Assembly: GCA_051883535.1 (NCBI GenBank)
Contig: JBJETX010000079.1
Span: forward strand, 1-52,649
Length of the DNA stretch: 52,649 bases
From: Christensenellales bacterium
GTDB lineage: Bacteria; Bacillota; Clostridia; Christensenellales; DTU072
Direction of reading: 5' to 3'
Made by a program: the position numbers and the translations under genes. Positions 9,001 through 38,810 of this stretch are shown here, one piece after another. The notes under the pieces are model-generated. The model saw nothing but the letters and a program-made list of their open reading frames with translations, had not been told where the DNA came from and ran no database searches. The first letter of the stretch is position 1. Each line of letters begins with the position of its first letter.

Positions 9001-11984
9001 AGGTCGTCAAGCACGAATTTAACGCGGGAAATATCCTGATTGTCCGCGCTTTCCTTGTTGAAGAACGAACTCGACGCGTAGTCGATATTCTGCCTCGAAA
9101 CGACTCGTCTCGCCCCGAGTTCGAACAGATATATCGTTCCCGCAAGTATCATCGTTCCGTCGTCGAGAATAACGTTGTCCTTGTAAACGAGAAAGTCGTA
9201 TTTAAGCGGGTCGTATTCGTCCATATAGTCTTCGTAGAAGTACACGGGAAGTCTGTCGTGCAACGCGGTGTCGTACGGGCTGTTTCCCGTTATGTTGTCG
9301 AAGAATCCGACTTCGTACATAAGATACTGTTTTCTTATCGATTCAAGACCTTTTACGCGGTATTCGAACCCTGCGTCCACTTTGATATTACCGATAAGCC
9401 CGTTTACTCTGAACAGGTTCTGCAACGTTTCGTTGGAAGAAGTTATTTCGAGTTGTTCCGCCGCGGCGATAACGTACGCGTCCTTGCAGAGCGCGGTTAT
9501 GATACTCGTAAGCGACAGGTTGAAATCGTTGTCCGCAAAACTCGTCACGTCGTCCTCAATCGACGTTTCGTTGTTCATATACGCCGACATAGACGCCATG
9601 AACACGTCCTCTCGTATCTTTACCTTAGGTATAACCTGAGTTCCGTTTTTCGTAACGCACGCGATGTTGACCCAGACGTAACCGAGTTCGTCTTCTCTCG
9701 CCGGCAAATCCTTGTATACTTCGTTGTCGAAACATACGTCGTCCGACGCAAGTCCGATTATTATCGAACTTTCGCTTCCCGTCAGCCATACGGTGAGTTC
9801 GAACGCGCTCCTTCCCGCTTTTTTCAGCCGCCCGTCCGCATACTGATCCTTTACGAATTGGTCGTAAATAAGCGTAAACGACAGCCCCGCGTTCTGCGCA
9901 AGCACGTACGGCGTGTTAAGACCCGAACTCTCGCCGATGGTGGCGGACAGCAATTTACTTAAATCGACGGTCTCCTGCGAACTGAATATGAAATTACCCC
10001 TGAGCGTACCCGAATAGGTGTAAATCTCGCCCAAAGGTTTGAAGTTTGTGAAGTCTATCTCGGTAATCGAGACGTATTCGCCGAAATGTATGGGAATGAG
10101 TTCCAACCGGAAAATCATCGTCGAGGGTTCGCCCGGAACCACGCCGACGTTGGTATACATAATTATCGTGAATTCCTGCTTGTCGACGTCCCACGTAAGC
10201 GTGAAATACGTCTTTTCGAGCATTATCTCCGCGCTCGCTATGCCGAGCATAATGGCGATCTGATCCATCGTATACGGCATCATCGAGTCGAGAATGTTGA
10301 TAATCTGTCTCGTCGAATACGAACCCACGCCCGTTTCTTCGAGCATCTGTTTGACGAGTTCTATATCGAGTTGCAACGTTTCGCTGTTTATCGAGAATAT
10401 GTCGTCGGGGTCTTTCTCCGTGAAACTCGTCTTCGCCATAAGGTATTCGAGAACTTTGTTCTCTTTGTCCGACGACGCCGGGTTCAGTATGGAGTCCACT
10501 ATGGAAACGATTACGTTGTTCACCATCCGGAAGAACTTACCGAGCACTTCGGCAAGGTCGAGATGTTCGTCGTATACCTGCGGGAACCCGAGGGATTCGA
10601 CGTCCACCCAGCCGTACATATACGCCATACCCGATATGTCGAGCCACGCCCTCTCTTCGCGGTAGTACAGACCTATCATAAGTTCGCCGTTGGCTATGTC
10701 GCGGAATTCCATAAACACGTTGTTCGTGCTGTTGTCGTATTGCTGAATGTCCGTCTTGATTTCCGCGTCGAACTGCGCGTCCCACGCCGGAACGTAGAGC
10801 ATACCGTCGAACTCGTAGTTACCGTAATCGAACATCGTATAATACTGCGTGTCGAGCGTAAGCGTTTTGGGATACGTCCAGCCGTAGTCGAATTTTATGT
10901 TGGAAGTGTACGTGTAAAGAACGTCGTAACTGTTTACCACGCCGCCGAAAGCGAATTCCGCGTTCGTAAGAACGTTGGTAACCCCGCTCTTGTCCGGCGA
11001 TATTATCGCCCGCATGTCCGCGTTTATCGTCTGAATGAGCGCGTTCGCCACCGTACTGAATTTGAATCCGAGGAACTTATACGTCATCGGGTCCCATTTA
11101 CGCCCGAATACACCGAGCAGGTCGTAAATAAGTTCGTTCACGTTGCCCGCGATTGCGTCCAACGTAACGGAATAGAACAGCAGGCTTATAAGGTCGCCGT
11201 TCACCACTCGCTTGTAGTTTTCGCCGACAAGGCTGGTCAGGGTCGAGTTAATCGAACTCGTTCCCGCGTCTCCCTGCAAACCGAGAGATTCGAGCAATCC
11301 TTCGACGGAGAGATTTACGAGAAGTCTCACGAGTTGCTGATAAATAACCGTGTCGCCGAAATCGGGGAAACTGCGCTTGTAACCCTGTACGTTCATATAC
11401 AGAATATTCCCGGGGTTGTCCGCGTTGCTGTTGAGTCCGTCGAAGTACAGACCTATAAGAACCTCGTTGGTCGCGCCGTTGTACCATTCGATGCAGATAT
11501 CGGATTTCTTTATCGCTTCGTTATGAATTTCCAACGCGCTTACGAGCGTTCTCGTACCTTCTTCGTTATTCTCGTCGTAATATTTTCCGTTTTCGTAATA
11601 TTTGTAGATGGGGTTTCCTTCCTCGTCCTCGTAAGGATAGGTATAGAGATAAGCCTGAACGCGGAGAGCGAAGTTGCCGGCGGTATTGTCGCTCGGATCG
11701 AGAATATCGATGTCGAAATCCACGCCCATATAGTAACCGCTGTCCACGAAAGACTCGCTGTCGAGATATTTACGCAAAGCGGTAATGGACTCGGTGAATT
11801 CGTCTACGGCTTCCTCGTTGGTCGTATGGTCTTTGTTGTAATAGTTTCCCTGATTGTCGTTTATGTAGTAGGTGGAATCTCTGACGGGATCCTCCAGTTC
11901 GCACGCCGAAAGCACGACGGAAAACATCAGCGCCGCCAGCACGCACATCAGGAATTTTTTGAAAAGACCGTTTTTCGTACCCAT
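1..11984 (-). CDS. giant predicted lipoprotein, N-terminal >=3994 codons (3' end lies beyond the left edge)
   Basis: Absent from the ORF track because there is no in-window stop. I reverse-translated by hand the frame whose codon low coordinates are 0 mod 3, at 11984-11460, 6000-6059, 3060-3180 and 3-600. All four stretches give ordinary protein with no stops. N-terminus is MGTKNGLFKKFLMCVLAALMFSVVLSAC/ELEDP, a signal peptide with an LSAC lipobox. GGGGAGG lies 9 nt upstream of the ATG at 11984-11982. No other minus ORF of this frame is listed in 1-11984. The three long + ORFs here are in exact antisense register and are R/V/F-rich. Confidence 0.8.
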   Translation of the reverse strand, partial: MGTKNGLFKKFLMCVLAALMFSVVLSACELEDPVRDSTYYINDNQGNYYNKDHTTNEEAVDEFTESITALRKYLDSESFVDSGYYMGVDFDIDILDPSDNTAGNFALRVQAYLYTYPYEDEEGNPIYKYYENGKYYDENNEEGTRTLVSALEIHNEAIKKSDICIEWYNGATNEVLIGLYFDGLNSNADNPGNILYMNVQGYKRSFPDFGDTVIYQQLVRLLVNLSVEGLLESLGLQGDAGTSSINSTLTSLVGENYKRVVNGDLISLLFYSVTLDAIAGNVNELIYDLLGVFGRKWDPMTYKFLGFKFSTVANALIQTINADMRAIISPDKSGVTNVLTNAEFAFGGVVNSYDVLYTYTSNIKFDYGWTYPKTLTLDTQYYTMFDYGNYEFDGMLYVPAWDAQFDAEIKTDIQQYDNSTNNVFMEFRDIANGELMIGLYYREERAWLDISGMAYMYGWVDVESLGFPQVYDEHLDLAEVLGKFFRMVNNVIVSIVDSILNPASSDKENKVLEYLMAKTSFTEKDPDDIFSINSETLQLDIELVKQMLEETGVGSYSTRQIINILDSMMPYTMDQIAIMLGIASAEIMLEKTYFTLTWDVDKQEFTIIMYTNVGVVPGEPSTMIFRLELIPIHFGEYVSITEIDFTNFKPLGEIYTYSGTLRGNFIFSSQETVDLSKLLSATIGESSGLNTPYVLAQNAGLSFTLIYDQFVKDQYADGRLKKAGRSAFELTVWLTGSESSIIIGLASDDVCFDNEVYKDLPAREDELGYVWVNIACVTKNGTQVIPKVKIREDVFMASMSAYMNNETSIEDDVTSFADNDFNLSLTSIITALCKDAYVIAAAEQLEITSSNETLQNLFRVNGLIGNIKVDAGFEYRVKGLESIRKQYLMYEVGFFDNITGNSPYDTALHDRLPVYFYEDYMDEYDPLKYDFLVYKDNVILDDGTMILAGTIYLFELGARRVVSRQNIDYASSSFFNKESADNQDISRVKFVLDDLILDPTKERSKENMLVYENEGRYYYRTYYGKQRQVREEYIEVGDDGTVYVYWAGINEVVFHDEGASYYFFDRNRAVEDENGDHAYISVSTDRDLLFEYDPDSIKITEDCKTQYAPRTNGSFMGEVRRYFITFESLDSGELGKIETLYYDESSGYPQYYSKADEEYVVEVYDDDGVLISSTKTPISLYVMEPCEPLRESVEVNVKTDSTTTQLKNFNARFVIDWNLASADKKGYMTVTEVIVAPGMMGEITFPVRIIVVNREIDTDDYVSVYTTEEEVASRAPVVDEISVDPYDYAIAKYAYLSDTANFNPAILHSREDVASAYAEAVKAFSAAYFSQAKFAFSIQFAWQQSYLYANDVGNTYIARSYDNYADGVLTRYDWSYDICEKGNNVETSVSPLGGTIYLHTYFRGQLIALRVNIGKREFSHLKFYDTDEFSPESYNAGNGATDTYVNGVYRGNYYDESTYEIESRPIFVFTDGINEYEYVFDMQIVRGLLKNGDGTYSGAYDIDDSYRVKWGNPAIINVTSKGSSYGEYAYSYLYKENEYTDLEQRYDALGETLRAKKVKIFRTDKTVTEDYLYVKTADGRVKVRNNWTYSELGTVLSASELRGTVFTVEYGSGEATKYKSDRVGNAMIRDTDVEGETTAYNRPFYYFYLRSNPDVPVHLTEEEYELYVAGDAETRAKYGFNTDNPDQITTAGLDLYYLFRLYFSLDNELYAISTLSNGIIDPDHLNDQAVGITDFSLIELRIVADCPQLDVDVVGPETDRLTGETFVMNKVDAGDEGALGYYKVDPLNAETLYLPDSLKIYFRYEGFVSAHTFGNLSWCAYFDAAGNPVYTYYDSEKGAYVPIIEVVTDASGKTRYKVAIDVEELTEELIFRAMVKIGNATSGYREITVAVRILSKDPTNVDFYVNSTGEKLETPATITEVVSGSSMTKLTYYTYYANTFENFRLPDRLVATFSDGHTQIYIPTWRPAKTGADFIFEPNTVMTLVTTIGTDGGVTVDIYLVVVVENYELNKMEVSNEFSSYYVTIKSENGEVLDRKVTVGSLFKLDGKEIGYYYQSTSAYYIHISTGADEDGDTPGGEIGLYTLDAETGRYVWRRSVGVYEFITSLYSRATLSLNKYETDMASQKIINDEASVFDHSILMRRGTATLTVSIREAATVKYEFRPAEGNADVMTVELKYIDPGTGVEYTAAVNENGLLTISYGESAARNISYAELAAYIIGEDMAEKYVDWRVVSVNGVTTDANGAPFGSASLLSAYVSYHSEEKKVEIDSSLGLRDGGEIELKNSLNRTVTMSYREIVYRLTNYYRYLRVSEGTTRTVANKNISIKNLYEIMDVNDMLVRPRDSGDPMPDGKYVVALGTGTGSYDLRAKLVFTGGYYLTQDSRGTETVKVTVYTAGGAAQYSDGYIMGNSVSATVTAIVNDGTNNTRKFNYNRNATDEKLSEWYVEVMSGGNPTNIDGINAGDVISFIPAEAIYATGKNRQITISALTSEGFRIKRTIVFEELPVSMNDGFSGGNPSASFADTGTFAVSDGLITVDNVYDFTNPGVVEYLGGTKYLPSTINVSVNGRTINVSGVKWKINPVWYGAPDSVLSGLTYKGTTGKYVMATAEILGCTDSAGNRFGTTAISLYVQIKSAEVVLLPWETDDRGNGLATETLESGGKRVYRVYIDAYADTDAVRKGAIKTDDDGRHYLELPTDLLASYTSGETFSFSGVRYVYGGTREVTKIYFDARGIDVEAMTSSSGDLSGISVGLLNERELKLTVELGLEQNLDIRFYFHNKRPKETEGIVYYTEYLIDDSKVLYADLPESERAKKVGTTDKYLFVEGEDGYAKAANLLYYYEPYYEDGQQVRYNLLSDEQKNAVIEGTEVKLYTVGTSGYAQKASLIYNDALAVIDIDDAAIRNAIYEEKRSDFTAYQSSLLTGVNLIRVETNLKNVIAAAQEIRSGIRLSIENISITPDVGTTAASVSEKLLAWTTEIAFRGIYDESALPARRAYDEDESYNYALDKLKAAAIALAYYDGENAGSYVTSILSIIRGSGSNTAKEKSINEKIAAYFDEFVQSGYNAAIRGCVEKEYERMFAVELDGMTDEEYNDAIGYKNMIEAGFDADAVIADVYKLRSLEKSGVSAEFAAKQIDVADAEEIGFGFLPEYVDYTVGGRKVNYSELSAADKAATVKYGDGTALPVYRSGSAGQAQKLTNKYTYEELAYAAIVQAILEAYDYADATVVAGDADAAAIKETVIGLFESRLDLNKHRFGGTAYGGVKAETYTFDAFVKNYAYNRTAAGLTKKVMRAYLVNAVREAMDFTAFTGGDMARWNEYEGLFGNVIRYSYNAITNYATTINSLRRSLVSGAAVTDVLRNLIIAGIKSFTETVYAEAEYMGTIKNMQEINGQIIEVGRYGASGYSLDRFAALLDANLAEYFIEPYYSYRAVPHRILVFFSGDDRTDDESGKPYETEIAWSVDGVTGNVSYAGITGTLSGTLGSGVTGESVVIHMAAIAERRVLADEDKSVTTEYIEDGLAYAADGTYDGKLTSDGLYYMYKARSGYVYYYAYDATLATPSDYEANGKIAYTLKYEDRFGNKEMSEFSGYDAQRTVVYTFANEYGESGKLVRQSLYVYNPFEFSQADDMPAGIIVGGQMMTVRWNNVGIQPTGNITTVTDGSKQVVKGRIESDAGQEVEMSVFVAKWSYAGFYRRTDAASGTIFEAEGEQRRFVYMNPLGFYFSAYTPYSAEDYYLVAFAVRIIMPDPVTGEKGVKRIIFEEDASGAFVGIKVQDKEEGFVRKLFYPEDSRLFEYGTDDDTMAAVNARKRYVIYWEALQKNRVVNNQLSQQSGCLVYLGNADVGQFTLDGLKEQSDSTAPTKATYSCERMTISEIAFVTLDGLFVEVNGNTATFVCEETGINYVLNLNNLSFVCNKCGHTHTATGTTELTLACGTVGCESYGRKVMYDTVAGTAKCDDEVCRLYEEIKDVLLAQSGQAAVVVSPDGYLPTTGDVNLREN

Positions 11985-12040
11985 CAAGAAGTACCTCCCC
12001 GAGAAAAAAGAGCATAGTATACCCTTTTTGCTTTGTAAAT

Positions 12041-12069
12041 ATTATATATATTTTCTCCTTGCCTGTCAA
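12041..12069 (-). promoter_or_regulatory. sigma-70 promoter of the giant lipoprotein gene
   Basis: The minus strand reads TTGACA-17 nt-TATAAT, a perfect consensus. The -35 is 12069-12064 and the -10 is 12046-12041. This leaves a leader of about 50 nt with a GGGGAGG RBS. Confidence 0.7.
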
Positions 12070-19184: not shown

Positions 19185-22100
19185 TCAGTTCGTTCCGATT
19201 AAAACGTACGCCGTTATCGCCGTGCCGCTACTCTTAGGCGTGAGCGTGATCTCCCACAGATAATACGTTTTCCCTCCGACGTCAACGCTCTTTCCGCTTG
19301 CAGACGGAGTTGTCGTATACGGCGCGGAAGTGTATTTGGAGTCGGTTATGGCAATAGAATAAGTATTTCCGTCAATGGTCGCCGTATAGGTTTTTAACGT
19401 ACTGTTTACCGTATAGACTCTTGTCGCCGTCGTCGTATAAGCGCTGCCTTTACCGCAGAACGCGCAATACTTATTCAACACCTTAATAGTTCCGTTGTCG
19501 TAAACCATTTCCTGCACGCCGTACAAGGTTTCGCTATGCTCCTCGTCTCCTGTTCCGTAATCCGCTCCGCATTCCGTGCAGACGTGTCCCGACCCGTCGG
19601 AGTTGGATTTATAATCCGTACATTTATGCGGGAACAGCATCGCGTAAACGCCGTCGTGCGAGAGCGTATCCGTCGCAAAGCGGACGTAAGTTATGCCGTA
19701 TACCGTGCCTTCTTCGTCTCCGCCTACGTCGACGAACGTTCCGTCGGGTTTCAGTTTTATCGAAACGGGATAGAGTTTGTACAGGTCTCCCTTGTCTTCC
19801 GCAAGTCGCGCGGGCAATTCGTAGTAACCGCCGTTTCCGTTCTTGTCGGCGGCGTAAGCCGTCATCTTAACCGAAGCGAGTTCGGCGCTTAGTCCCTCTG
19901 CCGTCGCAGACGAGAGAACAACGGGCGTTCCCGTTCCGCATATCGCGCATTTATTGATTACGAATTCGTACGTATTGTCTCCGACTGTATATTTCGCCGT
20001 ACCCGTCACGGTTTCTTCGTGCGCCGCCGCGTAATCCGCTCCGCAATCCGCGCAGACGTGCGCGCTTCCGCTGTGCAGGAAGTTATGGCAGACGTGGTTT
20101 ACCGCAACGTAATAACTGCCGGCGAGCGTTATTCCCGTAGTCGCGTTGACTAGAACGACTTCCACTACGTCGCAACCCGTCGTTTCTTCCACGAAGTATC
20201 CTTTTACGAGTTCGCCCAGCGCAAGCCCGTCGTAGTTTTCTTTTACGGTAATGCGATATTCCGCGTCGTTGTACTCGACGAGGTATCCGAGCAGAACGCC
20301 TTTGAGTTCTCCCACCGTGGGCGTCGCGCTCAATTCAAAGTACGCGTTTCCTTCGCCGCCGACCACGCACTTCGCTCCGATAACGTTGAGCGTTTTTCCT
20401 CCGACCGTCTTCGCTTCGGAAACCACCTTACAGATATGCGCGGAGTCGTTCTTTACGGGAAGGATAAATCCTGTCGTCCTGCTTTCTCCGCCGACTTCGT
20501 AAGCATACTCTTTCGTAATCGCTTCGTCGTCCGTCCTCGTAAGCGTTACCGCAAGCGCGTAATACGTAATTCCGTTTTCGGCGAAGGTAAACGCCGCCGC
20601 CTCGACTATTCCGAGCGAGGATTCCGCGGTAATCGAATACTTCCACTCGTACCCGTCAAGGGTAACGGTAATCGCGCTTACCGCAGTAATCGCTTCGGCT
20701 ACGGTCGCCGCTTCAACGCTCAGCAATTCGCCTTCTCCGCAAACGCCGCAGACTTTGGTCACCGCGCCGTAAACCGCCGCGCCGTTTTCCGTTTTCTTCG
20801 TGGCGTACGTATCCGCAACGTGCGGCGTTTCTTCGGTTTGTCCGCACCCTATGCAGGTATGCGTTCCGTTTTCGTCGGGTTTGTAATGGCAATCGCTATG
20901 GGCTACGAGAACGTAATAATCAACGTTCGCTTCCACGTTCACCTTCACGATATAATATAACGTTCCGCCGACGGTTACGCTACCGGTCGCTTTCGCTCCC
21001 ATAGGCTCGTCTCCGTCTCCCTGCGCGGAAATGCGTTTCCCCTCTTCTCCTATCGCGGACGGCGCGAGGAAGAGGTTCATCTCGTTGAATTCTTTTTCTG
21101 TCGTCTCGCAATCGATTATAAGAAGCGTATGCCTGTCGTTACATACCGAGCAAACTTCGCCGAGTATGAATATCTGTTTGCCGTCAACGAAGTAATTGTC
21201 GTCCATATACGCCGCGGCAACGTATTCGGAAACGTGTTCTTCGTACAATCCGCAGACCGTACAACGGTGTTTTCCGCTTCCGTCGTCTTCCGCGAACGTA
21301 TGTTCTCCCGTGGCGGGCAGAATTCTCTGTCTGTCGTGTTTGATAACGAGCGGCGTTCCGTCGCTGAGTACCCCTTTTACTTCGTATTTGCAACCCGTAT
21401 ATCCTATTTCTCCGCAAGTAGGCGCAACGACGACTATTTCCTCTCCTTCGCAGTTGGATACCGCTCTTCCTTTAAGTACCCCGCCGTCGTATACGTCCAC
21501 CGTTACTTCTTCCGCAACCTCTGCTTCGCTCGTATAAACGTACGCGGTACAACCGTCTTTCGTAAACATCCAGCCGCCCGAATATATAACCGTCGTTTCA
21601 TCTGCGTTCAGCGTTCCTCCGTTGTTTTCAAGTCCGCCTCCCGGTTGTAAAGTCACTGAATATACGTTAAGGGCCCCTCCTGCCTCGAGAATGGCTTTTC
21701 CTCCGCTGTATACCCACGCTTCTCCTATTGTTGTCACACCACTATCATAATAATAAACTTTCAACTCCGCATTTATCGTTACCGTTCCTCGAATGGACAA
21801 AAATCCGGAAGTTATTATTTCCGTCGTTCCCGACACGGTGAGCGCGAATCCGATTTCAGACATATAGATTCTATTTTCGTTTCCGACAAAAGTAAGACTT
21901 ATATCTTGCGTACTGCCGTAAGTAATCTCTCCGTTTATTACGACCTTACCGTTCGCCGTAACGTTCGTGCCCGTTTCTCCGAGATATAAGGACTCTGCGG
22001 TAATTCCCGCCGCGATTTCGTAATTACCCGCGCCGAAAGACATATTCGTTGCCGTAAGCGTTTTCCCGACCGTCGATTCCACCGTTCCGCCGTTAAGACT

Positions 22101-25100
22101 GAACGAATCGACCGTCAGATTTCCGCCGATCGTCGTAACCGAACCATTTTCTCCCGTTATCTCTCCTTTGAGCGAGCAGTCCGCAGTTAAGACCAGCCGT
22201 CCGCCGTTTACTATTTTCGACGAAGCGGTCGTTACGGTCTCTCCGTAAATCGTCACGCTCGCGCCGGAACTTATCTTCATTCCCTCTCCGACGTTGACCT
22301 TGCCGCCCGCGTTCACCGTAACGTCGACGCCGGTCGATATCTCAAACTCTTCTTCCGAAATTCCGCCGAAGAAAATCAGCCGTCCGTTGATTGCCGCGTT
22401 CGTTTCTACGCTAAGTTTTCCGCCGGAAGAAATTCCGATTTTGCCGTTTATTTCCACCGCGGACGCGCTTGCTACCGTCGCGGTTCCGCTCGCCACTATC
22501 GTTTCTCCTTCGGGCAATTCGGTTATCGTCGCGTTATTCACGCGGATAATTCCGCCTTTTCCGAACGCGTCGGTTACGTTCATGTAATGGCTGAGATATC
22601 TCGCCGTCGCGCCGTCTCCGTTGTTTGCCGGTTCGTCGCTCGTCAACGCGTATCCCGTCTGCATACGCGTTCTTCCTTCGTACAGATACTTCGTGCCGCT
22701 TCCCGCTTCCGCAGAACCGTAATACAACGCCATCGCGCCGTTTCCGTCAAGCGCGTAAACCTCTCCTTCGTAAGAAGAGCCGCTTAGCGTTGCGTACGCG
22801 GTAACGTACTCCGCCACCGCGCCCGTTATCCGAGCCGCCGCCTCGAGAGTAACCGCCGCGTATTCCGCCACGGAAGAATCGGCTTTGCCGTATCCGACGT
22901 AGAGAACCGCGTCTCCGTCCGCGTTGGTGACGGTTCCGCTTACCGACACTCTCGCGTAGTTGCCGTCATCGTTTCCGTTTTCCACCGCCACTATCGCGCC
23001 GCGGTATATTCTCTCATCTCCCACGAGGGTTATTCCCCTCGCCGCGGTCGCGCTTACCGTTCCGCTTATCGACGTATATCCCGCGCCGACCGTCAGGATT
23101 CCCGCGGTCTGTCCCGCAACCGTCGCTCCGCTCTTCACGTTTATAAGCGGCGTAGCCGTATCCGTCGTCGTTTCCGTCGGACGTACGGATTTTATGCCCA
23201 CGTCGCCGCTTATCGTCGCTCCGCTTTCCGCCGTTACGACAACCGCGCTTCCTTCGGCGTAAACCGCAGAGTTATTCGTTCCCGTCGCTCCGACTGCGCC
23301 CGTGATTACTACGTTCGCCGCGCTTCCGACGACTTTCAGTCCGAAGTCGTAACCCGTTACCGTTCCGTTTATCGTCGCGTCCGCGCTCGTCGCTATCGCC
23401 GTTCCTCTCGCGCTCGTTACCAGCGCCCCCGCGTTGACGGTAACTTTTCCGCTTCCGTCGATCGCGCCGTATTCGGTTTCAATCGTTCCGCTTTCTACGA
23501 CGATCTCTCCCGTTCCCGAAAGCGTCGTCGTTTCTCCCGTCGCGCTCACGCTTGCGTTTTTCAGCGTAAGTTTTTCGTTCGCGGTAATTGCGCCGCCGTT
23601 GAAAGTCAGCGTAAATCCGTTAAAATCGAGAACGGTCGCAACGGAAGGCGCGTTTACGCTTTCTCCGACGGACAGACTCTTTCCGAGCAGATACGTCGCT
23701 CCCGATTCGAGCGCGCTCGCGTCGCCGTATGCAATTGAAAGCGTTCCGTAATAATTCTTCACGTCGGAACCGAGCCTCGAAACCGCCGCGTCCACCGTCC
23801 ACAGCGCGCCGCCTTGTCCCGCCGAATACCCGCCGAGTCTGACGAGTCCCGTTTCGGCAACGGTAAGTTCCGTTCCTGCCGCCGCCTCGTATGAGGAAAG
23901 AACGGCAACCGCCGATACGGTCAGCGCGCCGCCGCTTATTTTTAACCTATATCCCGTCTTTTGTTCGTAATCGTAGTTTATCTCCGCTTCGCCGCTCGTC
24001 ACGGTATAGTCGTATCCCGACTCGCCGCTTCCGACAATCGTTTCGCCGGAAAGAACTCTTATACCTTTTCCGTACCCGTCTTCGGGCGCGTTTCCGTTGT
24101 TTATAAATCTCTCGGAACCGATAACGATTTCCGCTCCCGCAAGCGCGGCAAGTTCTCCTCCGAGCGCGCCGCTTAATCTGAACGACGCCGCGTTTACCTT
24201 TACTTTTACTCCGTCGTTCACGACAAATCTGTCAACGCCGAGGTTCGTCGTCGCAAGGAACTCGACGGCGCGCGCAACTTCGAATTCCACCGCGTTGACG
24301 GTAAGAGAGGATTCAAAGGAAATCGCTTCGCCTTCGGCTATTTTCAGGTGCGTATATCCGCCGAACGCGTTTTTATCTATGAAATCGCCCTTGTCGTACG
24401 CAACGGCTTTGAAATATTGCGCCGTTTCCGATTTTTCTATAGTCGCGCCGCCTACGGATAACAGTTTTCCGTGTATGGTCGCGCCCGTCTTAATGACGAA
24501 CACGGTAGACGTGCCGTTCAATTCGAGTTCATCCGTTTTTTCCACGCTGAAATCGATATTTTCAAAAGTGGTCATCGTTCCGACAAGCGTTCCTTTCAGT
24601 CCCGTCGCGGTCTGAGTTACGGTAAACGCTCCGCTGTCTATTTTGGCAAACATTGAGGACATAACTCTGCCCATCATATTAACCGTCATCCGTTCGGGAG
24701 CCGTCGTGCTGCCGAACGCACCCGCCTTGAACACCGCGGTTTCGTTGCCTTCGTCCACAGTCAACGCGGTTACCGGCGCGCCGCTGAACGCGCTCTCTCC
24801 CACTGTTATACCGTCCCTTTCGGGTAGAGACACCGCGGTTATTCCCGTATCGGCAAACGCCCTGTCGCCTATAATAAGCGAAAGAACGGAAGCGGAGACA
24901 ATCTCTATTGCCGTAAGGTTGGTCGCTCCTGCGAACGCGCCTGCGCGTATATTGCTTACGTTCGCGCCGAACACCGCTTTCATTCCCGCCGCCGAGCCTG
25001 CGCCGAAGAACGGCTTTGCCGCTTCCGTACATTCGTATTCCGCGCCGTCGGGATTGAAGTTGACGAGCGTAAGACCGCTCATCATTCCGAACGCCTGCAC

Positions 25101-28100
25101 GCCTATCTTTGTCACCGTTTCGGGTACGGTAAGCGTTTTCACCGCGGTAAATCCGTAAAACGCGTAATCGGGTACGGTCTCGACCTCTTCGCCGATTATC
25201 AGTTCGCAATTCGTACTGTATGTCTGAACGAACGTAGCGCTGCCCGCTCCGTCTTTATTCGCTCCGTTTCTGACGTTATACGTCAGTTTTGCAAGGGAAC
25301 TCGCTCCCACGAACGCGCTCGCTCCGAGAACCGTCGCGTCGCCGCCTATCACCGCTTCTTTTACCGAACTGCAATAGTAGAACGCTTCCATGCCCATCAA
25401 CACGAGATTTTCCAGACGGACGACCTGTTCTCCTCCGCCTTCTTTCGCCATTTCGGAAACGTGCGTTATTCTCACGAGTTTCGGCGCTTCGCCGCCGTCG
25501 CCCTTGCTGAACGCTCTTTCTCCTATCGTGCTCAATCCTGCGTCGGAAGAATAATACACCGACGTAAGGTCTTCGCAACCGCTGAACGCGTACCCGCCGA
25601 TTTCCGTCACCGCTTCGGGAAGAACAACCGTCTTCACGCCGCTGTATTCAAACGCTTTTTTCCCTACGATCGTAAGGGATGTACGCGATAAATCCGCCTC
25701 TTCGAGCGAAGCGCAGTAACCGAACGCGGATTCACCTATCTCGGTAACGCGTTCCGTCGCGTCGAATCTGACGAGTCCGCTTCCCGCGAACGCTCCGCCG
25801 GCAATCGTAACCCGTTCCGCATTGTCTCCCGAGGCAAACGATACCGAGGTAAGATACTTTCCGTTTTCCTCATAACCGCCGAGAGAAGTCCTCGAACAGA
25901 ACAGATCTTTTACAATCGCGGTAACTCCCGTACCCACGATAAACGCGATACCTTCCGCCGCGTCTTTTCCCGAATTGCCGAATACCTGCGAGCCGACGTT
26001 AAGCGGGTTAAGCCCCGAAAGAGTCGCCGTAGAAAGGTAGTTTATCGTCGCAAGATTATTTATTTCGGCAAACGCGCGGTTTCCTATCTTCGCCACACGC
26101 TCCCCTATCGTAACTTCGGTTAACGCCGAACAGCCGTAATACGCGTCCTCTCCTATTTCTTCAACCGCGTCGACGAGACCCGTCCCTGTAAGCGAAGAGC
26201 AGCCGCTGAACGCTCTCTCTCCTATCTTCGTCACCGTCTCGGGCATAATAACGCTCGTTATCGTGTAAAAACCGATAAACGCCTCGTCCGCAAGCGCGGT
26301 TATCGCCGCTCCGTCCGCGCCGACGGCGGGCATTTCTATTTGTCTGTAATACGCTCCGACGTAGTTCTTATACTCCGCCGTGTTTTTTATCGTGTCGTTA
26401 AGTTCGGCTACCCCGCTGTCCGAAGTTATCATTCTGATAAGATAACAACTGAAATACGCGTGAGAAGCGTACGTTTCGTGCTTGTAAGTCCTCTCTGCGG
26501 AATAAGAACCCGTCGCGTCCTTGAATCCGTCTCCCTCTGTCTTCGACGAATCGAGCGTATCGCCTTTGTACCATCCGCTGTACATGACGTTGTCGACGTC
26601 GAGTCCCGCGTTCTCCGCGACGACTTTGGTTTCGTCGTCCCCTATAAGTCCGACCGTACCGTTGTAATTAACCGTATACGTCGTTTGCGCCAAGGCGTTA
26701 CCGTACACCGTAACGGGCGCGCCCGACAAATGGTTGAGCGAATCGGCAACGGAATATATGCTGTAATACACTCTGTAATTTATCGCTTCGATTTCCGCTT
26801 TTACGTAAACGTCGCAGACGTATTTTTCTTCCGTCGTTTTCATTATCGCCGAAGCCGTGGGATAAGAAAGGTTTTCTTCGTCGAATCCCGAACCGAGCGT
26901 TTCCGTAACCGCGGTCATATCCGCATTTTCCGATACGGTAAACCCGGTTATCTTGTTTCCGTTACGCATTATCGCCGTATAGTTGCACAGAAAATCAAGC
27001 GTGCTGCCGTATTCGAAAGTATAAACCAAGGCGAATTTATTCGACCCCGCCGACGAATCTTTTATCTGCGTCCTGTCGTCAACCGCCCTTGCGGTAAACG
27101 TCATTACCTTGAACTCCGCTTCTATCTCGGAATTCTCCGTCAGAAAAACGGTTATCGTTCCGTCGTCGTTTACGCGGTATTTGAATACTTTGTTGCCCGA
27201 AGTAACTTTATAAACCACTCCCTCTTCCGCTTCGGAAATGTCGAACCTCACGATTACGTCGCTCTGTCCGTCGGTATGAGAAGTTATTTTCCATACGGTA
27301 AAATCGTATCCCGTAGGCGAATGTCTTTTAAGGGTTATCTCCGAAAAATACAGGTGTCCCGAAGTAACGAACGGATTGCTTTCTCCGTAAACCGTTTCTT
27401 CTTCCCTTTCCACTATTTTATTTACGTTCGCGGTCTCAACGTTGCCCGCGCCCTCGTCGAATCTAAACGTGTTTTTCGCCACGGATACGGTATACGACTG
27501 AAGTGTAAATCTTCCGTACGCCCATACGCTTCCGTCGGGCATCACGTTTTCGTTATACGGTTTGTCTCCGCTCATTCTCGTCCATCCGCCGAAAGAATAC
27601 CGCCTTTCGGTCGCGTCTATCGTCGGATCTTCGATCTGCTGTCCGTAAACCATATCGTACGCCGTAACGTCTTTCATCGAGCCGTCGGAGGCAAGTACGC
27701 CCGTCACGAGATAGTAGTCCAGGTCGCCGACCGTTTTCTTGTCTCTCGTATCTACCGCAATATAGCCGGATAAAAGTCTGTCCGCGTCGGCGTGCAGATA
27801 ATCCGCGCTGACGTAGTATTTGACCGTATGAATATTGCGCTCCGCGTAAATAACGTATATCGTGCTCTTTCCGCTCTTTATGAAAACGAAATTTATCTCG
27901 CTTTCGTATTCTCCCGTATTCGTTATTCCGTATCCGCTCTCTTCTCCGATCGCTTCCCCTCCGACTCTTACGTTGTGCATTCTGTAACCGTTGTCTACGG
28001 TAACGTCAACGTCGAACGCCGAACCGAAAGGCACTACGTACACCGAACCCGAGGCGTATAACGACGGATCTTTGCCGTTTATGGCGGAAACTTCGTACGT

Positions 28101-30215
28101 TCCCACTCCTTCCTGCGCGGAAAATCCGACGGAATAACTGTTTATCGTGCAGACGGACCTCACGACCACGTCGTACTTGGGCATTACGAAATCGTTGAGA
28201 TCTCCGAGACCTTCCCTGTCCGCTTTCCAATCGCTGACGGTCCAGTTCGCCGCGCCGTAAATAAGCGCAAGCCCGTCGGGCGTCGCGTCACTCTTTATCT
28301 CGACTTTGGGTTTCAACCCTCCGCGCACGCCGTAATTACGCGTTTCGCTCGTCACGTTATAACCTTCGGTATACGCTCCGTTTTCAAAGAATGCGGGGTC
28401 GTCCGTCACGTCGTTTCCGTCGTAGACGACGCTGAGAATATACGTTATCGTATAATCCCTTTCGATAAAGCGAACGGTGAAACTTTCTTCCTGTTCCACG
28501 CGATATCTGTAAACGTAATAAATCGTATCCGTTTTTACTTCGTCTCCGTACTGAATTACCCTTCCGGAAGCGTCGTTGTTTTCCTTATCGAGCCATTGCC
28601 CGAATTTATATCCCGATTCCGCGACGACGTATATCTCTATCGTCTGCCCGTATTCGTAATATCCGCTAAGCGTTCCGCTCGCGCCTATTTTTGCCGTCCC
28701 TTTGTCCGATTCGTCGGATTTTACCGATATCTTATGCGTTTCGGGAACGAACGTTCCTCTGACGTAAACGTCTCCGTCTGGCATTACGGAAGGAATTCTT
28801 CCCGAATTGTCCGCGTTCTCCCAATTACCGAATTTATAATGAGAAATCGCGGGAACGGCGGCGAGCACGACGGCGTTGTTATAGTCGTAGTATTCTTCTT
28901 TCAGGAAGACGCCTTCTTCGGTTGCAGATTTTTCAAATCCCGCGCCGATAAGTCGGTTTTCCCCTTCTGCGTCGAGACAGTATTCTCCGTTGACGTTGCA
29001 GTCTATACGGTAAAACACCGTGTGTTCTTTTCTTATGAACTCCGCTTTAAGCAAAGTGTTCGCGCCGCCCGAAATAACCGCGCCCGTCCGCTCTATCTCC
29101 GCAAGCGTGAACGTCTCGGTTATAGGAGATTTTTCCGCGCCGACTTCCGCTACGGGCAAAGTCACCGCGCGGTTTTCTTCCTCGGAAAAATACGTCGCTT
29201 CGTCGCCGTTTATGAAACACAGCGTTCCGTCCGACGTCCTGCCGAGAACGTACTGCGTTCCTCCGTAATTTATTCTCCATTCCACGAAATTGCTTCCCGC
29301 GGGAACGGTTCCCGATACGTTGACCGTATCGTTACGAGCGTAAAATCCGCCGCCCGAACCGCCTATTACGGTAAGTTTGTACGCCTCTCGATATTGCGCT
29401 TCGAGAACGTAGGTTTCTCCCGAAACGACGTTATCTCCGGTAAGAGAGAAAATAAATTCTCCTTCGTCCGCTATACTTGCTCCGCCGAGTTTCCAGCCCG
29501 TACACTGCCTGTCCACTATGTCCGGCGCGACTATTCTCACCGCGCCGTCTTCGATATACGCTTTGATTTCTTCGGTTACTTCTCCGGTTTCCGCGTTTTT
29601 CAGCACTATATTGACAAACGGATTTTCTTTGTAAACCGCGTGAAAAACCGTTTCTCCGCCTTCGTAAACGCCCGTGGAAGTTCCGTTTGCGTCGGTTACG
29701 AGAGTTTCTCCCGCCTGCCAGCCTACGAAACCGAATCTGTGTTTTTCCGGAACCGGCAGAATATATCCGTACCCTTTAAGCAACGCGCCGTCCGTATCCG
29801 AGAGAATGCCTCCGTACGCGCTGACTTTTATAACGTAGTTCTCGGGAAGGGTTCCCCCGTCGGCGTCGAGAGTGACCGCGTCCGCTGAAGCGTATACCGC
29901 TCTTACGACGGCGTCGCTCGTCACTTTATAGACGGTTTCTCTATCGTAAGAAAAAGGTTTACCTTCGGCAAGCCAGCAGACGAACATTTCGTCCGCCGCA
30001 ATCTCCGCTTTGAGTTTTATCTCCGTACCGAGTTCGTAAGCCCTGAGAGTTCTGTTTTCTCCGCATATAATTTCCACCGTGCGCAGTTCGGTCGCTTCGG
30101 GAATTTCGCCGCCCGGAGTGTCGTCCGTATTTTTTTCGGAACACGACGCCATTATGCAGACGGTTGCCGCCAGCACTGCCAATATCGCTAATCCCACGAA
30201 CAATCTTCGTTTCAT
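19185..30215 (-). CDS. 3676-aa mosaic surface lipoprotein (InlB-B/Listeria-Bacteroides-like repeats, BspA-type LRR, beta-helix-like region, C-terminal Cys/His modules)
   Basis: This is a track ORF. Signal peptide MKRRLFVGLAILAVLAATVCIMASC/SEK, with GGAGG 5 nt upstream. Repeated G[YH]xFxGW motifs are present. The LRR_5-like units are of the form TVTKIGERAFSGCSSLT / IGEDAYYGCSALT / IGGYAFSGCEDLT. A long G/T/S/A/V-rich segment follows, then four HxC...HxCxxCG...CxxCG modules at the C-terminus. Confidence 0.9.
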   Translation of the reverse strand: MKRRLFVGLAILAVLAATVCIMASCSEKNTDDTPGGEIPEATELRTVEIICGENRTLRAYELGTEIKLKAEIAADEMFVCWLAEGKPFSYDRETVYKVTSDAVVRAVYASADAVTLDADGGTLPENYVIKVSAYGGILSDTDGALLKGYGYILPVPEKHRFGFVGWQAGETLVTDANGTSTGVYEGGETVFHAVYKENPFVNIVLKNAETGEVTEEIKAYIEDGAVRIVAPDIVDRQCTGWKLGGASIADEGEFIFSLTGDNVVSGETYVLEAQYREAYKLTVIGGSGGGFYARNDTVNVSGTVPAGSNFVEWRINYGGTQYVLGRTSDGTLCFINGDEATYFSEEENRAVTLPVAEVGAEKSPITETFTLAEIERTGAVISGGANTLLKAEFIRKEHTVFYRIDCNVNGEYCLDAEGENRLIGAGFEKSATEEGVFLKEEYYDYNNAVVLAAVPAISHYKFGNWENADNSGRIPSVMPDGDVYVRGTFVPETHKISVKSDESDKGTAKIGASGTLSGYYEYGQTIEIYVVAESGYKFGQWLDKENNDASGRVIQYGDEVKTDTIYYVYRYRVEQEESFTVRFIERDYTITYILSVVYDGNDVTDDPAFFENGAYTEGYNVTSETRNYGVRGGLKPKVEIKSDATPDGLALIYGAANWTVSDWKADREGLGDLNDFVMPKYDVVVRSVCTINSYSVGFSAQEGVGTYEVSAINGKDPSLYASGSVYVVPFGSAFDVDVTVDNGYRMHNVRVGGEAIGEESGYGITNTGEYESEINFVFIKSGKSTIYVIYAERNIHTVKYYVSADYLHADADRLLSGYIAVDTRDKKTVGDLDYYLVTGVLASDGSMKDVTAYDMVYGQQIEDPTIDATERRYSFGGWTRMSGDKPYNENVMPDGSVWAYGRFTLQSYTVSVAKNTFRFDEGAGNVETANVNKIVEREEETVYGESNPFVTSGHLYFSEITLKRHSPTGYDFTVWKITSHTDGQSDVIVRFDISEAEEGVVYKVTSGNKVFKYRVNDDGTITVFLTENSEIEAEFKVMTFTARAVDDRTQIKDSSAGSNKFALVYTFEYGSTLDFLCNYTAIMRNGNKITGFTVSENADMTAVTETLGSGFDEENLSYPTASAIMKTTEEKYVCDVYVKAEIEAINYRVYYSIYSVADSLNHLSGAPVTVYGNALAQTTYTVNYNGTVGLIGDDETKVVAENAGLDVDNVMYSGWYKGDTLDSSKTEGDGFKDATGSYSAERTYKHETYASHAYFSCYLIRMITSDSGVAELNDTIKNTAEYKNYVGAYYRQIEMPAVGADGAAITALADEAFIGFYTITSVIMPETVTKIGERAFSGCSSLTGTGLVDAVEEIGEDAYYGCSALTEVTIGERVAKIGNRAFAEINNLATINYLSTATLSGLNPLNVGSQVFGNSGKDAAEGIAFIVGTGVTAIVKDLFCSRTSLGGYEENGKYLTSVSFASGDNAERVTIAGGAFAGSGLVRFDATERVTEIGESAFGYCASLEEADLSRTSLTIVGKKAFEYSGVKTVVLPEAVTEIGGYAFSGCEDLTSVYYSSDAGLSTIGERAFSKGDGGEAPKLVRITHVSEMAKEGGGEQVVRLENLVLMGMEAFYYCSSVKEAVIGGDATVLGASAFVGASSLAKLTYNVRNGANKDGAGSATFVQTYSTNCELIIGEEVETVPDYAFYGFTAVKTLTVPETVTKIGVQAFGMMSGLTLVNFNPDGAEYECTEAAKPFFGAGSAAGMKAVFGANVSNIRAGAFAGATNLTAIEIVSASVLSLIIGDRAFADTGITAVSLPERDGITVGESAFSGAPVTALTVDEGNETAVFKAGAFGSTTAPERMTVNMMGRVMSSMFAKIDSGAFTVTQTATGLKGTLVGTMTTFENIDFSVEKTDELELNGTSTVFVIKTGATIHGKLLSVGGATIEKSETAQYFKAVAYDKGDFIDKNAFGGYTHLKIAEGEAISFESSLTVNAVEFEVARAVEFLATTNLGVDRFVVNDGVKVKVNAASFRLSGALGGELAALAGAEIVIGSERFINNGNAPEDGYGKGIRVLSGETIVGSGESGYDYTVTSGEAEINYDYEQKTGYRLKISGGALTVSAVAVLSSYEAAAGTELTVAETGLVRLGGYSAGQGGALWTVDAAVSRLGSDVKNYYGTLSIAYGDASALESGATYLLGKSLSVGESVNAPSVATVLDFNGFTLTFNGGAITANEKLTLKNASVSATGETTTLSGTGEIVVESGTIETEYGAIDGSGKVTVNAGALVTSARGTAIATSADATINGTVTGYDFGLKVVGSAANVVITGAVGATGTNNSAVYAEGSAVVVTAESGATISGDVGIKSVRPTETTTDTATPLINVKSGATVAGQTAGILTVGAGYTSISGTVSATAARGITLVGDERIYRGAIVAVENGNDDGNYARVSVSGTVTNADGDAVLYVGYGKADSSVAEYAAVTLEAAARITGAVAEYVTAYATLSGSSYEGEVYALDGNGAMALYYGSAEAGSGTKYLYEGRTRMQTGYALTSDEPANNGDGATARYLSHYMNVTDAFGKGGIIRVNNATITELPEGETIVASGTATVASASAVEINGKIGISSGGKLSVETNAAINGRLIFFGGISEEEFEISTGVDVTVNAGGKVNVGEGMKISSGASVTIYGETVTTASSKIVNGGRLVLTADCSLKGEITGENGSVTTIGGNLTVDSFSLNGGTVESTVGKTLTATNMSFGAGNYEIAAGITAESLYLGETGTNVTANGKVVINGEITYGSTQDISLTFVGNENRIYMSEIGFALTVSGTTEIITSGFLSIRGTVTINAELKVYYYDSGVTTIGEAWVYSGGKAILEAGGALNVYSVTLQPGGGLENNGGTLNADETTVIYSGGWMFTKDGCTAYVYTSEAEVAEEVTVDVYDGGVLKGRAVSNCEGEEIVVVAPTCGEIGYTGCKYEVKGVLSDGTPLVIKHDRQRILPATGEHTFAEDDGSGKHRCTVCGLYEEHVSEYVAAAYMDDNYFVDGKQIFILGEVCSVCNDRHTLLIIDCETTEKEFNEMNLFLAPSAIGEEGKRISAQGDGDEPMGAKATGSVTVGGTLYYIVKVNVEANVDYYVLVAHSDCHYKPDENGTHTCIGCGQTEETPHVADTYATKKTENGAAVYGAVTKVCGVCGEGELLSVEAATVAEAITAVSAITVTLDGYEWKYSITAESSLGIVEAAAFTFAENGITYYALAVTLTRTDDEAITKEYAYEVGGESRTTGFILPVKNDSAHICKVVSEAKTVGGKTLNVIGAKCVVGGEGNAYFELSATPTVGELKGVLLGYLVEYNDAEYRITVKENYDGLALGELVKGYFVEETTGCDVVEVVLVNATTGITLAGSYYVAVNHVCHNFLHSGSAHVCADCGADYAAAHEETVTGTAKYTVGDNTYEFVINKCAICGTGTPVVLSSATAEGLSAELASVKMTAYAADKNGNGGYYELPARLAEDKGDLYKLYPVSIKLKPDGTFVDVGGDEEGTVYGITYVRFATDTLSHDGVYAMLFPHKCTDYKSNSDGSGHVCTECGADYGTGDEEHSETLYGVQEMVYDNGTIKVLNKYCAFCGKGSAYTTTATRVYTVNSTLKTYTATIDGNTYSIAITDSKYTSAPYTTTPSASGKSVDVGGKTYYLWEITLTPKSSGTAITAYVLIGTN

Positions 30216-31226: not shown

Positions 31227-31233
31227 ATCGTTA

Positions 31234-32802
31234 ATGAAAAAATCGTTTATCGCGCGCGCGTTCATTATCGTGTTACTTATCGTCGGCGTTTTCGCCGTTT
31301 TTTCTTCGTGCGAAAACAATACGTCGTCTTCCGGAGTATATACCCGCGAAGGCGTTGAAGACGGCGTCACATACCGCTACACCCTTACGGTCGACGAATC
31401 GCGCGGAACTTTTTCCATAACCCGTCAATCTAATCCGGAAATCGTTTATTCGGGTACTTTTACAAATAAAAACGGATACCTTATTCTTGAAAGTAAGCAA
31501 AACGGAACGGAGTACGTTAAAATTATCGGAAACACGTTTTCTTTCTTTACTCCCGACGACGCGGTAAAAAATTGCGAACACGATTACGTCTATTCTAAAG
31601 AATCGGCGGGCAACTGTATAAGCAAAGGTTACGTCCTTTATAAATGCTCTTTATGCGGCGCGGAAAAAACCGAATACACGACGTACGGAAACCACTCTTA
31701 CGAAACGGTTTCTTATAAAAAAGGAAACTGCAAAACGAAAGGCTGTACGACTAAAAAATGTACTTTGTGCGGAGAAACCGTCGAATTATTCGATAAAGAA
31801 TACGGAGAGCATACTTTAAGCGAAGAAACGCGCGTGGATACTGGCTGCATCAATAAAATAGAAGCAAGAAGGCGTTGCACAACCTGTAACGTTTATATAG
31901 AAAGCGTGGAACTCGACGAATACGGAAGTCATCACTACGACGAAAACGGAGTATGCACTATCTGTCACTACGACGCAAGCGGTCTATGTCATATCCATAC
32001 CGACGAAGACAAAGACGGAAACTGCGACGACTGCGCGATAAAAATCGAGGTTGCGGAAGCAATAGACGCAAACGGATATTACCTGTCAGACGACGGAAAA
32101 ACCCTTTATTTCGGCGCGTACCCGACTCTTAAAGCCGATTACGAAGTATCCTCGATTATTTCCGAAGGAAAATTCGATCCTACGACGGGTTATTACCGTT
32201 ATGAAAACGCAAGTTTTGCGATAAAAGAAAAAAGAGGCGTAAAATACGCGTTTCTCGTCACCCCGTTAAGTTGGAGTAAATTCACGATAAACGGCGTGAG
32301 TTACTTCGCCTGCAATTATATAGCGGACCGCAAAGTTTACCTTAATTCCGTAGATATTAAACGTACTCAGAAACAAGAAGATTCAACAATTATTTACGAA
32401 TATTACAATAATAATTACTATAACGAGAGTTCTAATTTTAACGTAAAAGCAAATAATTGGGAAAAAAGCGCGCTTTACGAATTTGCAAATAATAACTTCT
32501 TAAACACCGCTTTTACCTCTCTTCAGAAAGATATGATAACGGGTTCAATAGGTATCCCGAGCGCGGATTTCGACGACGCGACGGAAGAAGAAAATTCTTA
32601 CGCTTTATCCGTTTGCTCATCGGCAGAAAATACGGATTATTCTATATTCGTTTCCGAAGTGAGCGAAACTTCGTTGATTTTCACTTCTTCCTCAGGCTCT
32701 GCCGGTAATACCGTTAAATGTATAAATGCGTATGAAATAAGAGACGCTTATATTAACAATACCTACGGTTTCGTGCCGGTAATACGCTTTTCCGTCGATT
32801 AA
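31234..32802 (+). CDS. Cys/His-repeat lipoprotein with DUF6273-like C-terminal domain
   Basis: Track ORF is 31198-32802. Signal peptide MKKSFIARAFIIVLLIVGVFAVFSSC/ENN has a lipobox. Repeated YG.H...C...G....C..CG units are present. The C-terminal NNWEKSALYEFANNNFLNTAF ... GFVPVIRF pattern resembles DUF6273, recalled from memory. Confidence 0.8.
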   Translation: MKKSFIARAFIIVLLIVGVFAVFSSCENNTSSSGVYTREGVEDGVTYRYTLTVDESRGTFSITRQSNPEIVYSGTFTNKNGYLILESKQNGTEYVKIIGNTFSFFTPDDAVKNCEHDYVYSKESAGNCISKGYVLYKCSLCGAEKTEYTTYGNHSYETVSYKKGNCKTKGCTTKKCTLCGETVELFDKEYGEHTLSEETRVDTGCINKIEARRRCTTCNVYIESVELDEYGSHHYDENGVCTICHYDASGLCHIHTDEDKDGNCDDCAIKIEVAEAIDANGYYLSDDGKTLYFGAYPTLKADYEVSSIISEGKFDPTTGYYRYENASFAIKEKRGVKYAFLVTPLSWSKFTINGVSYFACNYIADRKVYLNSVDIKRTQKQEDSTIIYEYYNNNYYNESSNFNVKANNWEKSALYEFANNNFLNTAFTSLQKDMITGSIGIPSADFDDATEEENSYALSVCSSAENTDYSIFVSEVSETSLIFTSSSGSAGNTVKCINAYEIRDAYINNTYGFVPVIRFSVD

Positions 32803-37205: not shown

Positions 37206-37220
37206 TTTAAGAGCCTCCTT

Positions 37221-38772: not shown

Positions 38773-38781
38773 AATAATCAA

Positions 38782-38810
38782 ATTATATCACAGATATAAT
38801 TCTTTTTCAA
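38782..38810 (-). promoter_or_regulatory. dnaA promoter, near-leaderless geometry
   Basis: The minus strand reads TTGAAA-17 nt-(TGa)TATAAT. The ATG at 38772 begins 9 nt after the -10, and there is no Shine-Dalgarno. Confidence 0.5.

Follow-up and report, generated by a model that had tools for sequence, protein, structure and literature searches.

Five tandem repeat domains, four with putative zinc sites, form the C-terminus of a giant predicted lipoprotein of Christensenellales

Introduction

Zinc knuckles rich in Cys are considered a device of intracellular proteins. Extracellular proteins usually depend on disulfides or else, in Firmicutes, do without Cys altogether. What, then, are pairs of CxxC knuckles doing at the far end of a protein with a lipoprotein-type signal? 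This question is raised by a gene on contig JBJETX010000079.1 of an uncultured Christensenellales bacterium of gut type (assembly GCA_051883535.1), of which a stretch of 52,649 nucleotides (nt), hereafter the window, was analysed. The gene (19185..30215, minus strand, from the list of open reading frames (ORFs) and the translation) encodes a protein of 3676 amino acids (aa). An initial annotation, made from the letters of the window, had described four tandem Cys/His modules at the C-terminus of this protein, had likened them to zinc ribbons, and had proposed that two neighbouring lipoproteins share them as a surface module.

Results

The protein contains eight CxxC motifs, all within its last 700 aa, where they form four pairs in four similar modules, A to D (aa 2985/3022, 3121/3156, 3388/3423, and 3546/3584); none occurs in the first 2960 aa. 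Shuffling of the whole protein or of its last 713 aa left a mean of 0.6–0.7 such motifs and a maximum of five in 5000 trials. The four module peptides quoted in the initial annotation occur in the sequence exactly as given there, and the modules align to each other significantly. In pairwise Smith-Waterman alignments of the cores of about 65 aa, five of the six pairs had z values of 6.7–14.9 relative to shuffled sequences; the A–C pair alone was weak (z = 1.9), but it is connected via B and D. In addition, a profile of the four modules recovered the equivalent four modules in two orthologues, P0038 and P0039 (<50% identity), with domain E values of 1e-14 to 1e-24. The modules are therefore true divergent repeats, as originally proposed.

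The segments behind the Cys/His cores had been taken for separate beta-rich stretches of 100–250 aa. A stacked alignment of all units from five proteins revealed that these tails are homologous to one another as well, and hidden Markov models (HMMs) built from the tails of types A, B, and D matched each other at 10–19 bits, with weaker matches for types C and B'. Common to the tails are a helix that directly follows the second knuckle, a strand with 'DG..Y', a hairpin with 'GG.TYY..V.V', and a final 'YYVLV' strand that leads directly into the H-x-C of the next unit. Because the tails are homologous, the repeat is the whole unit and not a core plus a spacer. An HMM of the whole unit gave five consecutive matches over aa 2965–3673 and nothing elsewhere in the protein, the additional copy (B', 75 bits at aa 3255–3372) being hidden in the 207-aa segment after module B. 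The five units cover aa 2964–3676 without gaps. Based on these results we concluded that the C-terminal 713 residues comprise five tandem copies, rather than four, of one previously undescribed domain of 120–160 aa, each with a long beta-hairpin, one helix, and a beta-sheet. The repeated entity is an alpha/beta domain of about 100–120 aa, and most copies carry a Cys/His-rich elaboration of 45–65 aa.

All units are encoded on the minus strand. Unit A (aa 2964–3099; 20919..21326) has its core at aa 2972–3029 (nt 21129–21302) and seven putative ligands, H2972, H2983, C2985, C2988, H2994, C3022, and C3025. Unit B (aa 3100–3248; 20472..20918; core at aa 3106–3160, nt 20736–20900) has H3106, C3109 (His in orthologues), H3119, C3121, C3124, H3132, C3156, and C3159 in this role. 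The degenerate unit B' (aa 3249–3367; 20115..20471) keeps only H3260-x-C3262 and C3283, and the entire first-knuckle segment is missing, here as in the orthologous units, which read H-K-C ... C-T-V-C-G in P0039, H-K-C ... C-S-C-C-G in a further orthologous locus, L002, and H-V-C ... C-A-D-G-G-C in P0038. Unit C (aa 3368–3523; 19647..20114; core at aa 3374–3427, nt 19935–20096) carries the candidates H3374, C3376, H3386, C3388, C3391, H3399, C3423, and C3426. Unit D (aa 3524–3676; 19188..19646; core at aa 3530–3588, nt 19452–19628) ends at the stop codon, with H3530, C3532, H3544, C3546, C3549, H3560, C3584, and C3587 as putative ligands. A recent DNA duplication of the units was rejected, as they share only short DNA matches. 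Units C and D nevertheless have in common, at 94% identity, a 31-nt stretch that encodes the first knuckle (HVCxxCGADY; 19556–19586 vs 20030–20060), while their protein identity is only about 33%; local gene conversion or a strong constraint at the codon level may be the cause.

Conservation of the Cys and His residues was analysed in an alignment of 15 modules from five proteins, in which the positions of interest are numbered H7/C9/H10, H21, C23, C26, H37, C61, and C64. H21, C23, C26, C61, and C64 were invariant, and H37 was present in 14 of the 15 modules. The resulting core pattern comprises one or two of H7/C9/H10, followed by H21-x-C23-x-x-C26-G, H37, and C61-x-x-C64-G, with 35–38 residues between the knuckles of each of the four modules. 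The pattern given in the initial annotation thus holds for the two CxxC knuckles and the conserved His; the first Cys of its leading H-x-C, on the other hand, is not conserved, as the position is taken by a His in F/W/Y context in type A and by His in the orthologues of type B. By type, the N-terminal ligands are H10 only (A), H7 with H10 or C10 (B), and H7 with C9 (C and D). Each module accordingly offers eight candidate ligands (seven in type A), and eight is the number required for two tetrahedral sites.

The exceptions at these positions replace one potential ligand by another. The sole deviation from H37 is a Cys (module C of P0038), and column 10 of type B is Cys in the protein studied here and His in P0038, P0039, and L002. 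In module C of L002, Asp replaces H21, the otherwise invariant His before the first knuckle. Such exchange among His, Cys, and Asp is what is typically seen at metal ligands, not at disulfides. When seven strain variants were compared, the 31 ligand positions were all constant, while 44 of the 195 remaining core positions varied (Fisher p = 0.001).

On which side of the membrane these residues would reside depends on the N-terminus of the protein, which reads MKRRLFVGLAILAVLAATVCIMASC followed by S. The lipoprotein signal peptide reported initially could be recovered by reading the sequence: its lipoprotein-type signal is MKRRLFVGLAILAVLAATVCIMAS followed by C, and signal peptide and lipobox span aa 1–25 (...IMAS before C25; 30141..30215, minus strand). 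Basic N-terminus, hydrophobic core, and lipobox Cys are all present (MKRR-LFVGLAILAVLAATVCIM-AS-C25), and the orthologues have a lipobox Cys at the equivalent position after FAS, MVS, or MVA (FASC, MVSC, MVAC). The protein is hence predicted to be a bacterial lipoprotein that uses Sec and signal peptidase II, and we infer that it is exported. Its C-terminal array would constitute the membrane-distal end, because the predicted lipid anchor is N-terminal and there is no C-terminal anchor motif. Export of a pre-folded metalloprotein by the twin-arginine translocation (Tat) system was considered and rejected; the sequence 'KRRLF' is twin-arginine-like, but the orthologue P0042 has KRK, and Tat export is also implausible for a substrate of 3676 aa.

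The predicted extracytoplasmic location would favour disulfides between the Cys, in which case the modules would be disulfide-stapled loops resembling a small cystine knot. Four Cys per module could pair, and in the strain variant P0004 (3542 aa) both Cys of B' are lost together, as expected of a bonded pair. However, modules A to D contain 4, 5, 5, and 5 Cys, respectively, an odd number in three of four, and disulfides leave the invariant H21, the near-invariant H37, and the His-to-Cys swaps at two columns unexplained. CxxC at hairpin turns is a signature of metal knuckles, while a disulfide within CxxC is a strained redox motif and not a structural one, which also counts against this possibility. 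We therefore favour metal ligation over disulfides, given the invariant His, the exchanges of His for Cys or Asp, the odd Cys counts, and the absence of strain variation at the putative ligands, and regard the disulfide explanation as improbable. A further argument comes from Daniels et al., according to whom exported proteins of anaerobic Firmicutes lack the bias for even Cys numbers that marks disulfide use (PMC2823432), so that such proteins are not generally disulfide-dependent.

Structure prediction is compatible with metal knuckles. A single-sequence AlphaFold prediction of aa 3365–3676 had a pLDDT (predicted local distance difference test) of 42. Using a 25-row alignment that stacks paralogous and orthologous units, we obtained a model of unit D with a pLDDT of 85.1 and a predicted template modelling score (pTM) of 0.78, and values >90 over the hairpin, the helix, and the sheet. 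According to DSSP assignment of this predicted model, both CxxC motifs lie at turns between strands, C23xxC26 between strands 21–23 and 29–30 and C61xxC64 between strands 52–61 and 67–69. Turns between strands are the usual place of zinc knuckles. Foldseek searches with the unit D model against PDB and BFVD yielded no match (none at E < 0.1, best E = 0.15–0.2; TM-score normalised to query length at most 0.26–0.31).

Sequence searches gave a similar picture. No match to the C-terminal 798 aa was obtained in Pfam at E ≤ 10, and no named Pfam, NCBIfam, or PDB family covers the modules or the array as a whole. When the modules were scanned singly, nearly all of their Pfam matches, which remained under threshold, were to zinc-ribbon families and covered one knuckle each; Zn_Ribbon_TF matched 8 of the 15 modules, all under the cut-off (best 20.9 bits vs 29). 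The resemblance to zinc ribbons that had been noted initially is therefore borne out by the predicted beta-turns and by these weak matches, but no match reaches its cut-off. In a sequence-profile search of the PDB, only motif-level matches to zinc proteins were found. The best of these, 2LZE (E = 3e-4), an artificial RNA ligase that was evolved on a zinc-finger scaffold, was dismissed as it shares only 'GKHxCxxCG...H...CxxC'; L33, Nop10, zf-CHCC, and GATA followed, all at E > 0.1. Phrase searches of the literature for zinc fingers or ribbons described as extracellular or extracytoplasmic turned up no relevant work. Thus, the array is described in no family database or fold library searched.

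The CxxCG ... CxxCG pattern is also common to rubredoxin-type sites, and the modules gave weak matches to RUBY_RBDX (E = 0.15–0.31), raising the possibility that the knuckles bind iron and that the array is an extracellular electron-transfer element. These matches are far under threshold and cover a single knuckle, RUBY_RBDX being the only rubredoxin-like Fe(Cys)4 profile to appear, and knuckles about 35 residues apart, separated by a long hairpin and accompanied by invariant His residues, are not rubredoxin-like. Fe(Cys)4 sites would, moreover, need loading outside the cell after Sec export, and the neighbourhood contains no redox partners. Nor is there a haem-attachment motif CxxCH, as all eight CxxC motifs are followed by G or N, and haem binding as in a multihaem c-type cytochrome was rejected on these grounds. 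We consider an iron site very improbable.

Relatives of the array are few. An exhaustive profile search of 1.84 billion representatives (E ≤ 0.001) gave seven matches, among which the full-length orthologue clusters P0038 (3659 aa), P0039 (3682 aa), and P0042 (4001 aa) and the fragments P0037 and P0043 are true relatives; P0040 and P0041 were discarded as low-complexity repeats. A scan of 185,579 species genomes identified two loci, one each in an 'uncultured Christensenella sp.' and an 'uncultured Clostridia bacterium', and no relatives were found in JGI metagenome contigs scanned with D-type and C-type alignments. A word-indexed protein search with the C-terminal 798 aa returned nothing, a negative without weight as it also missed the protein's own cluster; the same kind of search with the module alignments returned only fragments of the same protein. 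P0042 is encoded in locus L003, whose genes specify RNase Y, a 508-aa protein, a short-chain dehydrogenase/reductase (SDR), the giant leucine-rich repeat (LRR) protein, an ABC transporter, TruA, and an energy-coupling factor (ECF) transporter. This neighbourhood is equivalent to that of the gene studied here, and the orthologues therefore occupy one chromosomal locus. The family is very rare and confined to syntenic giant lipoproteins of a few related Clostridia lineages, which is narrower than the 'shared' surface module of the initial annotation would imply.

The number of elaborated units differs between orthologues. The protein studied here has four putatively zinc-bearing units and one degenerate unit, and P0042 has two, with units 1 and 3 lacking the Cys/His elaboration. 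Locus L002 (positions 1–2706 of CALVYG010000052, uncultured Clostridia bacterium) has an extra Cys/His-free unit, its unit 2, between B and B'. Variation was also seen among strains. At 90% identity the cluster of the 3676-aa protein has seven members, and comparison with P0002–P0007 gave 19.9% variable columns in the array vs 9.2% in the rest of the protein. Strain diversity is greatest over the final 76 residues, where the mean pairwise difference reaches 0.15 (0.043 overall), and P0004 ends inside unit D. This variability fits an exposed tip under diversifying pressure.

Outside the array, the protein carries a BspA-type LRR region at about aa 1290–1800 (borders approximate; 24816..26348, minus strand), matched by Pfam LRR_5 (E = 1.5e-55, 187 bits vs a cut-off of 27.7) in four stretches, the best at aa 1470–1570. 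The only other Pfam match of the whole protein was a marginal one to Flg_new_2, and NCBIfam gave only a partial, weak match to the adhesin HupY/LrrG. An identical protein has the public accession MGN0768198.1 and is titled 'MAG: leucine-rich repeat protein [Christensenellales bacterium]', a name that is explained by the LRR_5 region and the weak HupY match. Directly upstream of unit A and outside the five-unit array lies a further Cys element, 'NCEGEEIVVVAPTCGEIGYTGCKYEV...' (aa 2915–2963; 21327..21473, minus strand), which is invariant across the seven strain variants.

Related motifs had been reported in two neighbouring lipoproteins, at 3–330 and 31573–32050. The latter lie in a lipoprotein of 534 aa (31231–32802, plus strand; 523 aa from the second Met) without a Pfam or NCBIfam family, which has three 38-aa units of the type 'H-x-Y...C...C-x-x-C-G...G-x-H' followed by more CxxC, five in total. 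These units have in common with the modules the C-x-x-C-G knuckle and an H-x-aromatic unit boundary, and the protein belongs to the same locus, a pairing that is kept in L003, where the 508-aa protein occupies the equivalent position. In contrast to the modules, each unit has a single knuckle, contains three Cys and one His in its 38 aa, and lacks an attached alpha/beta domain. The other neighbour is a second giant gene (1–12041, minus strand; >4013 aa in the window) that extends past the start of the window and has a lipoprotein-type signal (...MFSVVLSAC); its Cys-rich end contains one CxxC, and Pfam matches nothing in the last 400 of its visible residues. ORFs on the plus strand at 237–3098, 3660–9962, and 10086–12017 were rejected as genes, being Arg-rich antisense artefacts of this second giant gene. 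Neither lipoprotein was matched by the whole-unit HMM, and the module HMM scored ≤6 bits on the 534-aa protein and <0 on the second giant. Profile-profile comparison with the 38-aa units gave a probability of 18%, and only aa 2915–2971, before module A, resembles these units in an alignment judged by eye. A module shared with the neighbouring lipoproteins beyond the generic knuckle motif is thus not supported by the sequence comparisons.

The genes around the 3676-aa lipoprotein are housekeeping genes. One flank encodes an Fe-S/flavodoxin protein, an ABC-2 transporter, a TMEM164-like membrane protein, TruA, and EcfT/EcfA/EcfA' (ECF transporter), and the opposite flank an SDR, the 534-aa lipoprotein, and RNase Y, followed by dnaN and dnaA (36105–38781, minus strand, and about 38782–38918). 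The cumulative GC skew has its minimum at about 36–38 kb, and the chromosomal replication origin probably lies just upstream of dnaA. The giant lipoprotein genes are located 8–38 kb from this probable origin and oriented along the direction of replication. GC content drops to 0.34–0.39 over 34–38 kb, and a 413-aa ORF in this low-GC stretch next to dnaN (34842–36080, minus strand) has no Pfam match.

Discussion

The eight Cys and His residues per module most likely hold two zinc ions, as predicted from their number and conservation. Zinc is the default guess for Cys/His knuckles that are loaded after Sec export. We propose that the protein is exported unfolded via Sec and anchored to lipid through its N-terminal Cys, so that the array would lie farthest from the membrane in an adhesin-like protein of about 3600 residues. 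Each module would then bind two Zn(II) outside the cell, one most likely in a zinc-ribbon-like Cys4 site provided by the two CxxC knuckles, the other in a site made up of the His-rich set H7/C9/H10 together with H21 and H37. As structural staples, the ions would rigidify the loops of an exposed, fast-evolving tip, the bacterium being a strict anaerobe without dependence on disulfides. On balance, we lean towards this account, in which zinc stabilises the distal repeats of an adhesin-like lipoprotein as a structural staple. Only tentatively do we put forward the more specific proposal that the fold is new and contains a binuclear zinc site (Cys4 plus His-rich) outside the cytoplasm, which would replace disulfides in strictly anaerobic Clostridia and stabilise the exposed, rapidly diversifying tip of a giant adhesin.

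The ligands may be allocated in more than one way. In a ribbon arrangement C23/C26/C61/C64 would form one site and the His-rich set the second; in a nested arrangement an outer site (H7/C9/C61/C64) would enclose an inner one (H21/C23/C26/H37); a cross-braced arrangement is also possible. Unit B' keeps the outer H-x-C and C-x-x-C without the inner segment, and this pattern, together with the joint loss of its two Cys in one strain, means that the nested arrangement fits at least as well as the ribbon that we placed first. Other observations likewise weigh against the staple proposal as formulated. Type A modules have one candidate ligand too few for two complete sites, and some units have no Cys/His at all, so that metal sites are dispensable for the fold. 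The model of unit D is weakest just at its Cys/His part (pLDDT 65–78 for residues 1–40), and the underlying alignment stacks paralogous units and may impose a common fold. Finally, the lipoprotein assignment itself derives from a reading of the sequence.

If the sites hold zinc, they might serve a function beyond stability, either surface zinc capture or buffering, as with pneumococcal histidine-triad (Pht) lipoproteins, or zinc-bridged adhesion between cells, as with the staphylococcal G5-E 'zinc zipper'. In line with this idea, His-rich sites are arranged in tandem on a predicted lipoprotein, and type B modules start with H-x-x-H-x-[FY]; with seven ligands in type A, one position could be open to a partner or an exchangeable ion. 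However, Pfam gave no match to Strep_his_triad or G5, and no zinc-uptake genes occur nearby, the flanking ABC transporters being of the ECF and ABC-2 types. Cys4 and other Cys-rich sites also hold zinc too tightly to exchange, and the varying number of zinc-bearing units, along with units devoid of zinc sites, suits an accessory stabiliser better. We judge a functional role of the metal to be unlikely, if a little less so than disulfides. Pht proteins themselves are surface lipoproteins with several tandem His-rich zinc-binding motifs, as proposed here for the array; they differ in size (about 800 aa vs 3676 aa) and in the HxxHxH triad, which is missing here, and half of the putative ligands of the array are Cys.

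The closest resemblance of the modules as such is to knuckles of the zinc-ribbon or rubredoxin type, as in the TFIIB Zn ribbon (PF08271), Zn_Ribbon_1 (PF13240), and ribosomal L33/S27a. Both have two C-x-x-C(-G) knuckles at hairpin turns, in the present case predicted ones, and the secondary structure of the model is compatible with this comparison. Unlike in these families, where no module matches at gathering score, the knuckles of the array are split by a hairpin of 23 residues forming part of a larger sheet, and three to four extra conserved His/Cys imply a second site. The modules are furthermore embedded in a repeat of 150 aa that is predicted to be extracytoplasmic, whereas zinc ribbons are small cytoplasmic fingers that bind nucleic acids or proteins. 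With BspA-type LRR proteins (LRR_5; HupY/LrrG) the protein shares its strong LRR_5 region and the partial HupY match; the LRR region, however, lies 1200 residues upstream, and the matched families do not extend over the array.

Taken together, the array most likely represents zinc-knuckle stabilisation, predicted to operate outside the cell and within a repeat domain that matches no known family. Its impact is limited by a very narrow distribution, as the domain occurs in a handful of uncultured Christensenellales/Clostridia lineages and is not a widespread surface module. If our proposal is correct, the degenerate and zinc-less units would record the gain and loss of metal staples within one repeat family, and an undescribed domain would be added to the adhesin repertoire of gut bacteria. 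The array would then be a concrete, expressible instance in which metal staples take the place of disulfides in the envelope of an obligate anaerobe.

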